64,000 nucleotides of DNA, from positions 160,001-224,000 of the forward strand of contig CAVSZB010000003.1 of assembly GCA_963732385.1 (NCBI GenBank), given 5' to 3'. A program made the position numbers. Below, one piece after another: positions 30,001-33,000 of the stretch. The first letter of the stretch is position 1. Every line of letters begins with the position of its first letter. The stretch is from an uncultured bacterium. Lineage in GTDB: Bacteria; Krumholzibacteriota; Krumholzibacteriia; LZORAL124-64-63.

Positions 30001-33000
30001 CTCTGGACTGCAGGATCCGGAGAAAACCTCACCGCACCACATGGCGAGGTTGGCGGCGCCGAGTGGATCCAGGTTCGCGCAATTGTAGTCGGAGATGTGC
30101 CAGATGGCCGTCATGTTCGTATAGTCTTTGCCGGTCCACCCCTGGTCGTCCGCAACCCCCAAAGCAGTCTGGAACTTGCCGTCCAGCCGGGCCGGGCCGC
30201 CCATGATATAAACTGTATCGGCCGCAGCCTTGCCGCTGCTTATGGGCCCGCCAGAAAGTATGCTGGTGTCGGCGCCCCTGGCGTCAAATATGTGACGCTG
30301 GGCCTGTTGACTGTCATCCCTGGAAGAATCGTCAGCGATAGCGAGGCTGGCGAAGAGCGCCAGAGACAGACATACGGTAAATGTGAGTCTCTTCATGTTT
30401 TCCCCCAAACGTTGATCAAATCAACGCAATCAAGGTTGCGCACACGTCACCGGCCGCCACTCACTCAGCCGGGCGCAATTCAAGGGAGGCCAAAGTTCAT
30501 TCCCGCACAGTTGCGCGGCGCAAAGCCGGGCGAGAAATGAAGCTTACCTCCTTCGAATTGGAACGTGGGCGTATGGAACTTAGCAACAGTACCGAATGTC
30601 AAGTGCGCGGACGGCTGAGAGAGTGGAACCCAAAGACAGCGCGCATTGCACGAACTTTTGCCCATGAGCCACTACATGAGTCACAAAGGTGAGATTGGCC
30701 TCCTTTTCGTTTTGTGTGTTTGGTGCGGTCGCAAAAGCATCCTTCTCCAAACCCTCCCTAACCTCAATGCCAGGCCAAGACCGGAATGGTCCAGACAGCA
30801 GCGCGGCACTGACGATAGGCCCAGCAGCAGGTCGGCGAGGATGGTATTGCAGAGTCTTCCCGTCGGGCTTTGCCCGCGGGAATCAGCGAGGATCCTCAGA
30901 TTACCAGATTGCCCTTCCCTCTGTCAACGGTCCCCTGCATGGAAGTGGGGAATAACTTCACTGCTTATTATTAAACTTGCCGTTTCGCCATATATAAGAA
31001 CCTTTTAGGTTTGGCATTGTCTCGAGTTGTGAAATCCCCGGATCGGGCGCACCAACAGAAGCGGCCCCCCCGTGCGGGGGGGCCGCTCCCTTCAGACTCG
31101 GCCGTGAAGCAACCGGATTAGACATAATGGAACGGCTGGGCCCCTCGGGTATCGTGTGTTAGTCCGCACGGACCAGGGACACTAGGGAGCCGAAACTCCC
31201 GCTCACGAAAGGACCCAGCCATGACACACGATAGCACAGCGACCGTTTGGGTGGGCATGGATGTTCACCAGGAGTCCATCACCGCGGCGATCCTCTTTGG
31301 AGACAAGGACATCCCGGAGATTGTCCGGTTGCCAGGGGACCTCAACGCGGTTCGCCGGCTCTTCCGCCGCTTGACCAAGCAGGGCTCCCCGCGGGCATGC
31401 TACGAGGCCTCGGGTGCAGGCTACGTCCTGCAGCGGGCCCTGGACCACGATGGGTTCCAGTGCGAGGTGATCGCCCCGAGTCTGATCCCCCGCTGCCCGG
31501 GCGATCACCGCAAGACCGATCGCCTGGATGCCGTGCGCTTGGCGCGCATGTATCGCAGCGGCCATCTGCGGGCGGTGACGATACCAGATGAGGAGCAAGA
31601 GGCGGTACGCCAGCTCGTGCGATGCCGACTGTCGCTGCAGCGTCAGATCGTGCGCAGCAAGCATCGGATCGTCCGGGTGCTGGCTACCCACGGACATCGT
31701 TTCACCGGGACCAAAAGCAATTGGACGAAGCAGCATCGCGCCTGGCTGGCCACGTTGCGCCGCGAGATGACGGGCCCGCTGCAGACGGTCCTGGCCTACG
31801 ACCTCGACCACCTGGAGTACCTCGAGTCTCAGCAGCGGTCGCTCGACGCCGAGATCGAGCAGTGGTCCTGTCGCGAGCCCTGGCGGGCGACCGTCGAGGC
31901 GCTGCAGTGCTTCCGCGGCATCAAGACCCTGACGGCGATGACGTTGGTCACCGAGATCGGAGACATCCGTCGCTTCAGTCACCCGGACCGGCTGATGGGG
32001 TACACGGGGTTGGTGTCAAAGGAGCACTCCAGCGGCGAGCAACAACATCGTGGTTCGATCACCAAGGCGGGCAACACATTCCTAAGACGGATCCTAGTCG
32101 AAGCCGCTTGGCACTACCAGTACAGGGTAGGCTCGACCTTGATCCTCGATCGCCGCCGGATGGGTCAGGATCCTGAAATGGTCGCGATCGCCGTGAAGGC
32201 CCAGCATCGACTCGGCAGGCGATTCCATCACCTGGAGAAGACGAAGCATCGCAACAAGGTCGCCGTCGCGGTGGCCCGTGAACTGAGTGGATTCGTGTGG
32301 GCCGCGATGTGGGTCGCAGCCACGAAGCAACACTAGGACGCTGAGTGGAGCAGGGACCGGTCAGGGGAATCCTCGTTTGAAGTATGCGGCAGGCCATGAG
32401 CTGGACCCGCGGTGTTAGACGGAGGTCACCCCGAGACGGACAGAATTGTGTGCGGTAACCAACCCGCGGATATCAGTCTGATCAACCGTCGTTGCAGTCC
32501 CTGCTCCCAACAACCAGGCGTAAGAAGGGCCCCGGCTGTCGCCGGGGCCCCCGAGGAGCGCACTAATCAACGTTTGACTAGCCGTTCCATATCACTTCAC
32601 CAGCGTCATCTTCTCCGTCTTCTCGTAGCTGCCGGCCTTCAGGCTGTAGAAGTACACGCCCGAGGAGACCGACTGACCGGTGGAGTTGCGGCCGTCCCAG
32701 ATCACGGAGTGCGTCGTCGCATCCATGTTCTCGTTCAGCAGCGTCTTCACCAGTTCACCGCGCACGTTGTAGATCTTCAGCTCAACCTGGCTCTTGGCCG
32801 GCAGGGTGAACTCGATTTTCGTGCTCGGGTTGAAAGGATTCGGGAAGTTCCTGGCCGTGAACACTGCCGCGGGCGTCACGCCCACTGCAGCCCCGCTAGG
32901 CAACTTGCCGAAGAAGGCCAGAACGTCCATAAGGATCTGGGTACGGACCGCGATCCCGCCGGTCGGGGCCCCGTCCCAGATGATGCTCAGGTCGCAGGGC

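Follow-up and report, generated by a model that had tools for sequence, protein, structure and literature searches.

An IS1111-type bridge-recombinase element whose natural target is very probably the stop codon of type IX secretion cargo genes

The element, its host genes and the empty sites

The window analysed here is a 64,000-nt stretch of contig C3 from an uncultured member of the Krumholzibacteriota, whose genome (working label G000; 9 contigs, 95.8% complete) carries three copies of an IS1111-type element (C1:114539-116014; C3:191119-192594, which is the window copy; and C3:373013-374488). The copies share 100% identity over 1476 nt, which covers 102 nt 5' and 258 nt 3' of a 371-aa ORF, and all three are antisense to a host gene and directly adjoin its last sense codon. 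The features, in window coordinates, are as follows.

9062-9073, plus strand: 12-nt match to the right-end tip at the stop of an M6 peptidase sorting-domain gene (6644-9064)
27265-30408, minus strand: tandem paralogue of the host gene; its site, GTGAAG-TAA, is empty and matches perfectly
31060-31120, minus strand: displaced original stop TAA (31120-31118) and the host gene's own downstream hairpin (about 31087-31060), matching the 3' regions of empty paralogues
31120-32594, plus strand: IS1111-type element, 1474 bp net and one duplicated core base (A on the plus strand, T on the host strand)
31120-31137, plus strand: left end, with a 7-bp terminal extension (31120-31126) and the subterminal repeat ATGGAACGGCT (31127-31137)
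31221-32336, plus strand: DEDD/Ser recombinase, 371 aa (D14, E62, D100, D103, S271; PF01548 and PF02371)
32344-32509, plus strand: predicted bridge/seek RNA, with target- and donor-binding stem-loop domains and an outer closing stem (ends approximate)
32376-32384, plus strand: long target guide TTTGAAGTA, corresponding to host-strand Leu-Lys-T-A (covariation z 10-11 at five positions)
32414-32420, plus strand: short target guide GTTAG (T-A-R of the stop and the next base), then handshake bases AC
32444-32447, plus strand: weak left donor guide; right-end positions 112-113 complementary to left-end +5/+4 (z 4.8 and 7.2)
32470-32478, plus strand: right donor guide ATATCAG, then handshake bases TC
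32522-32550, minus strand: terminator-like GC-rich hairpin (32527-32550) with a TTCTT tail, facing the host transcript
32574-32594, plus strand: right end, with -35-like TTGACT (32574-32579), subterminal repeat (32580-32590), 3-bp extension and core base
32592-35732, minus strand: host gene of the window copy, 1046 aa, with a T9SS/FlgD-type C-terminal sorting domain ending MTLVK; ORF intact
36562-39684, minus strand: tandem paralogue ending GTGAAG-TGA-TCCGG (stop at 36562-36564)

Compared with empty orthologous sites, the occupied ones are 1474 bp longer (net); a single base, the T of the stop codon, is shared with the target. The genome-wide survey's note had placed the element at 31119-32594 with about 1475 bp; the identity of the copies holds, but position 31119 is target DNA. 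Perfect subterminal inverted repeats of 11 bp, extensions of 7 bp on the left and 3 bp on the right, and a non-coding stretch of 258 nt 3' of the recombinase ORF against 102 nt 5' of it are features of IS1111 elements, and the recombinase has the domains expected of the IS110 family, an N-terminal DEDD RuvC domain and a C-terminal Tnp domain with the catalytic Ser. These features bear out the survey's assignment to the IS1111 type. Against NCBIfam NF033542 (IS110 RNA-guided transposase) the recombinase scored 239 bits (cut-off 140). An alignment of 26 relatives shows D14, E62, D100, D103 and S271 to be conserved; of these residues, E62, D100 and D103, together with the Ser loop, also align with IS621. 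The IS1111 signature GL-P----SG was found in the clade defined below, with Pro changed to Ser in the 371-aa protein of the window copy. A -10-like CATAAT lies inside the left end (31123-31128), and joining the element ends creates TTGACT-17 nt-CATAAT, a sigma70-like junction promoter motif; a consensus scanner called no promoter in the linear element. The identical copies, together with polymorphic sites, suggest that the element is active.

Each of the three host genes carries a T9SS/FlgD-type C-terminal domain ending LVK, with matches to TIGR04183/PF18962 above cut-off. The genome encodes SprA and five PorV-family proteins above cut-off, together with a PorU that scored 416.8 of 420 bits. 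From the C-terminal sorting domain and this machinery the host genes are predicted to be T9SS type A cargo. The window also holds, at 27265-39684, three tandem paralogous T9SS cargo genes of ~1045 aa, with two further copies on C4 and C7; these paralogues gave a family match only at the C-terminal domain.

The survey's note held that the element sits between the last sense codon and a TAG stop, and this position was found at all three copies. The displaced stop, however, is TAG in two of them and TAA in the window copy (31118-31120, minus strand); seven empty paralogue copies in G000 and the same-genus genomes G001 and G002 read GTGAAG-TAA. Uninterrupted orthologous sites, also claimed earlier, are present in G002 (C27 54537-55277 + 55277-55942, reading GTGAAA/TAG) and G001 (C6 38220-38849 + 38849-39646, reading GTGAAG/TAG), but the orthologue at G002:C14:54856 (L380) is not clean. 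It reads GTGAAG/TGATC/TAG, and its five extra bases TGATC, which hold both element tips, are a possible, even likely, footprint of imprecise element loss. The stop of the paralogue at 36562-36564 is TGA, as against TAA in the seven empty copies; it may have arisen by a deletion between the TGAT and TAAT of an occupied site (an excision footprint) or by a single transition. Putative TGA-T footprints at Lys-ending genes numbered 6/18 versus 3/29 (p = 0.07).

The guide RNA and the rebuilt stop codon

We gathered 243 loci, of which 231 had a transposase match. A right end could be placed in 161 of these (143 unique), and the remaining 70 of the 231 were left out; 97 loci had both flanks, giving 83 representatives after a <85% identity filter. 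In a FastTree phylogeny of 126 proteins (midpoint root), elements of at least 55% identity form one clade (support 0.948). It comprises 53 loci, of which two belong to this genome; the flanks of 6 are too short, leaving 47 informative loci.

The right end folds with z = -4.1 (a constrained fold was also run), and RNAalifold on 24 right ends gave two stem-internal-loop-stem domains which contain the guides. Double-sided changes occur in 7/22 pairs of this consensus structure, a value matched by 0/500 shuffles. An Rfam search of the RNA returned no family and three chance matches below the gathering score. Right-end positions 45-49 match the five host bases 5' of the stop in 70, 65, 79, 76 and 66 of 81 (expected 22-32). 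Over the 83 representatives, the mean guide-target match is 4.38 of 5 versus 1.65 +/- 0.15 when shuffled (maximum 2.20 in 2000 shuffles), the shuffle tests and tallies taking loci as independent and ignoring relatedness. Covariation holds outside the clade, in 52 loci (z 5.5-10, extending as far as -6), and, more weakly, in the 31 within it (z 3-4.5). A second target guide, at right-end positions 81-83, tracks the bases 3' of the T. Both target guides follow Lys-to-Arg and TA-to-TG switches in the sites, and in relatives at TGA sites both are changed. The long guide TTTGAAGTA spells Leu-Lys-stop, and U82 of the short one can pair with A or G, which fits the use of both TAA and TAG.

On the donor side, right-end positions 140-141 equal the element's own end in 83/83 representatives, so the donor guide tracks end variants; position 144 equals target +2 in 56/83. 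The handshake positions match non-cognate DNA in 79, 48 and 56 of 83, in the register described for IS621 (PMC11208158, PMC13626964). Position 145 (window 32478) equals the target +1 base in 51/83, above expectation and off the handshake register, a signal which is probably due to clade structure.

The right end thus carries what is expected of an IS110 RNA, a structured molecule with target and donor guides covarying with DNA. The survey had suspected a guide in the folded right end, and the two-loop RNA and its covariation agree with this. Its word search had seen no guide-target complementarity, which nevertheless exists at 32376-32384. The long target that it proposed, CGCT(C/G)GTGAA(A/G)TAG, was not upheld: about six bases and T-A are read, and we rejected RNA recognition of CGCTSGTGAAR since covariation is absent beyond -6. 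ATGAGC at 32396 was also rejected as the second guide, being not conserved in the alignment. In genome G124, the near-identical copies L037, L038 and L041 carry two different guides (guide drift in progress), and the clade members L068, L100, L098 and L042 have rewritten guides at sites away from C-terminal sorting domains (non-CTD sites), L042 having lost the target loop.

Taking the host strand as the IS621 top strand, the donor junction core is CT. The target core is GT or AT in 27/31 clade representatives and CT/TT in 50/52 outside the clade. In the clade the first core base differs between target and donor, being G/A in 27/31 targets and C in 30/31 donors. The invariant core T is the first T of the stop codon, to which the element end adds GA (AG or AA in relatives), creating TGA; minus-strand positions 32594-32592 are the new TGA of the host gene. 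The survey's note had the element starting with this TGA; the codon does end the host gene, but it lies at the right end of the element, on the opposite strand. All 53 clade ends supply a stop (41 TGA, 11 TAG, 1 TAA) versus 75/90 outside the clade, which is indicative that the trait is largely ancestral, though never lost in the clade. IS621 cuts after the invariant core T.

A mechanism can be proposed from these sequences. The excised circle would join its ends into the sigma70-like promoter, which would drive the recombinase and the RNA. In the target DNA, the long guide would bind the last two codons and T-A, and the short guide would bind T-A-R of the opposite strand; the donor loop would pair with the junction of the circle. 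Covariation shows each of these pairings. The strand would be cut after the core T, as in IS621; the insertion products themselves are seen. Because the core T is the first base of the stop, joining it to the element end rebuilds the stop in place and leaves the secretion signal intact, as the sequences of the occupied sites show. We therefore consider it highly probable that the element is autonomous, that it belongs to the IS1111-type bridge recombinases and that T9SS cargo genes offer its natural target, their stop codon.

In this subclade, the hairpin close to the right end would probably terminate the host mRNA. A GC hairpin with a folding energy of -12 kcal/mol or lower is present close to the right end of 24/51 clade elements (27/51 are without it); a T-run accompanies it on the host strand in 23 elements and on the opposite strand in one. 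Outside the clade, such a hairpin was found in 7/7 of the sister group and 6/75 others. The consensus scanner did not call the hairpin at 32527-32550 as a terminator.

Sorting-domain stops as a target class

Stop replacement at sorting-domain stops extends far beyond the three copies from which the survey had proposed it. Of the 47 informative clade loci, 42 end a sorting-domain-type ORF and 5 lie elsewhere, and 37/43 submitted clade host genes matched T9SS C-terminal models. ORFs of at least 150 aa end at the junction in frames 0/1/2 in 33/8/0 of 36 in the clade; other relatives mostly do not end ORFs (19/61 in frame, versus 9 and 4). The junction motif was found in 68/208 genomes of the phylum (reversed control, 0), a count for which this stricter motif was used after a looser junction pattern was dropped as too noisy. 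Among 30 sampled phylum junctions, 23 were sorting-domain stops: 6 with a transposase, 4 at contig breaks and 13 relics. Across all GTDB genomes, sorting-domain stops made up 29/118 junction-motif matches.

By a rough gene model, the 164 empty matches to the guide motif in G000 consist of 131 intragenic, 18 intergenic, 7 at other stops and 8 at sorting-domain stops; the guide alone is therefore too short for this specificity. With 131/164 matches intragenic, targeting could be loose (~7 nt) without being directed at sorting signals, and the bias toward CTD stops would then be almost entirely a matter of harmless insertions surviving, as the on-guide insertion of L176 at a non-CTD site and the ancestral state of stop-making ends would allow. 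We consider this improbable. CTD stops are 8/33 of the harmless empty matches in G000 as against 42/47 in the clade, and across 40-45% protein divergence the guides follow the Lys/Arg and TA/TG composition of the CTD ends. Furthermore, a T at -8 is present in 48/49 clade sites, including 4/5 non-CTD ones. Guide and T at -8 together leave 42 sites in G000; 15 of these are harmless, and CTD stops account for 8 of the 15. An AG preference at -8/-9 common to the whole subfamily was rejected, being absent outside the clade.

Position -8 has no covarying RNA base in the right-end covariation test, and the sites immediately precede host hairpins, which together would suit a protein or host factor (recognizing terminator structure, or translation or transcription termination) that gives most of the specificity while the RNA sets only the register. 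This is very unlikely, as close clade members with re-written guides lie at matching non-CTD sites (L068/L100, L098) and clade sites show no conservation 3' of the site beyond +3. We favour instead a sorting-domain bias that would have three sources, namely the guide, the need for a T at -8 and purifying selection against intragenic insertions, which the counts above show in part; together they would explain most, perhaps not all, of the CTD bias.

Decayed copies would leave their tip as the permanent stop of the gene. In G002, a paralogue of the host gene (L368) holds a 76-nt relic in which the element stop and hairpin replace its own. Such retention, seen also at the 13/23 CTD junctions with long flanks and no transposase, is what one would expect if the element were domesticated and kept by the host to regulate or rewrite the 3' ends of secreted-protein genes. 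That the orthologous sites are empty in same-genus genomes, that the occupied genes are unrelated except for the CTD and that relics decay makes domestication extremely unlikely. The match at 9062-9073 is possibly an old relic; the G002 orthologue has diverged at the corresponding spot. A fourth full or miniature copy at 9062 was rejected, as the match is 12 nt only and has no RNA or left end. Another short right-end-tip match, possibly an old relic, lies at a further sorting-domain stop (G000:C7, about 1313180; L371).

Known systems and other lineages at gene ends

The mechanism itself is already known. According to Siddiquee et al. (2024; PMC11187229), the IS1111 seekRNA elements ISEc11, ISPa11 and ISKpn4 likewise have subterminal repeats, 7-bp and 3-bp extensions, a long 3' non-coding region, a junction promoter and a top-strand complement 5' of a bottom-strand match. 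Those elements insert at a short linear motif, at REP and at attC sites, whereas the present one targets a stop codon that follows a protein sorting signal and rebuilds it; the recombinase has 371 aa, as against the 330-350 aa given as typical of IS1111. With IS621 and ISCro4 (PMC11208160, PMC11208158, PMC13626964), the shared traits are two stem-loop domains, four guides with handshake bases, donor core CT, the invariant core T and aligning DEDD and Ser residues. Unlike in those elements, the RNA here lies in the right end, the element is antisense to the top strand of the guide, and the first core base differs between target and donor. As regards the short core of IS110 elements, one base is shared here (donor CT; target GT/AT in the clade, CT/TT in most relatives). 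The IS110-group element ISEc21, as described in PMC11187229, likewise has its guide directed at a coding motif that is conserved in a gene family, but it disrupts the catalytic codons of IS3 transposases, while the element here preserves its target gene.

The best named match is ISSfr2 (42.6%); the same RNA scaffold recurs in its right end, with a different guide, and gene-end targeting was not seen for ISSfr2 here. Within the ISSfr2/ISEc45/ISCARN28 subfamily (ISfinder names), ISCARN28 looks similar to the element on visual inspection of an alignment in a supplement. The IS900 group, which targets ribosome-binding sites and start codons, and Tn7 at glmS are familiar cases of harmless insertion at conserved boundaries of genes. 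In contrast to IS900 (5' boundary) and Tn7 (protein-guided, single site), insertion here is RNA-guided, multi-copy and at 3' sorting-signal stops. Our literature searches, confined to listings and with target logos and some supplements outside their scope, found no paper on stop-codon or sorting-signal targeting; the target class is thus absent from the literature searched.

By aiming at the conserved end of a secretion signal, a guide of 7-9 nt reaches dozens of harmless sites per genome, and at such ends the obligatory core T of the recombinase coincides with the T of the stop codon. The loci form a large natural set of guide-target-donor triples, including handshake bases, for the little-studied IS1111 side. 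The mismatch that occurs naturally at the first core base is relevant to the constraint on the core in bridge editing. In Krumholzibacteriota, element relics could account for T9SS genes with odd 3' ends.

Gene ends are also occupied by other lineages. A second IS1111-type element in G000 (C6:54036-55400; L080), of 41% identity, lies at the stop of a gene ending SWSAVKSLYR and belongs to a separate clade (support 1.0) located at WGxxKxL[YF]R stops. A WGxxKxxYR-type motif ends 16 genes in G000, and L080-type relics lie at C5:377573 and C7:1435757. Pfam and NCBIfam gave no family for the ends of seven WGxxKxLYR hosts, nor for L125 and L142; the WGxxKxLYR C-terminal motif is probably an unnamed second sorting signal. 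Another lineage (support 1.0) occupies the ends of one DUF3738 gene, one LuxR-like gene (LuxR-like being named by eye) and barrel-like genes ending ...xF, and L150, on a different branch, is at a T9SS gene end.

Conceivably, stops behind C-terminal sorting signals form a niche that was entered at least three to four times independently (T9SS, WGxxKxLYR, ...xF and other paralogue families) by this bridge-RNA subfamily, which evolved stop-making ends and host-facing terminators and steadily rewrote the 3' ends of secreted-protein genes phylum-wide, with the T9SS-clade recombinases natively needing a single shared T as core. We put this forward tentatively, giving it somewhat less than even chances; if true, these recombinases would lend themselves without modification to inserting DNA exactly at any stop codon. 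As a separate observation, L125, L142, L121, L152, L212, L136, L103 and L150 lie at the stops of genes from other families, namely barrel-like ...xF, DUF3738, LuxR-like, OMP barrel and T9SS.
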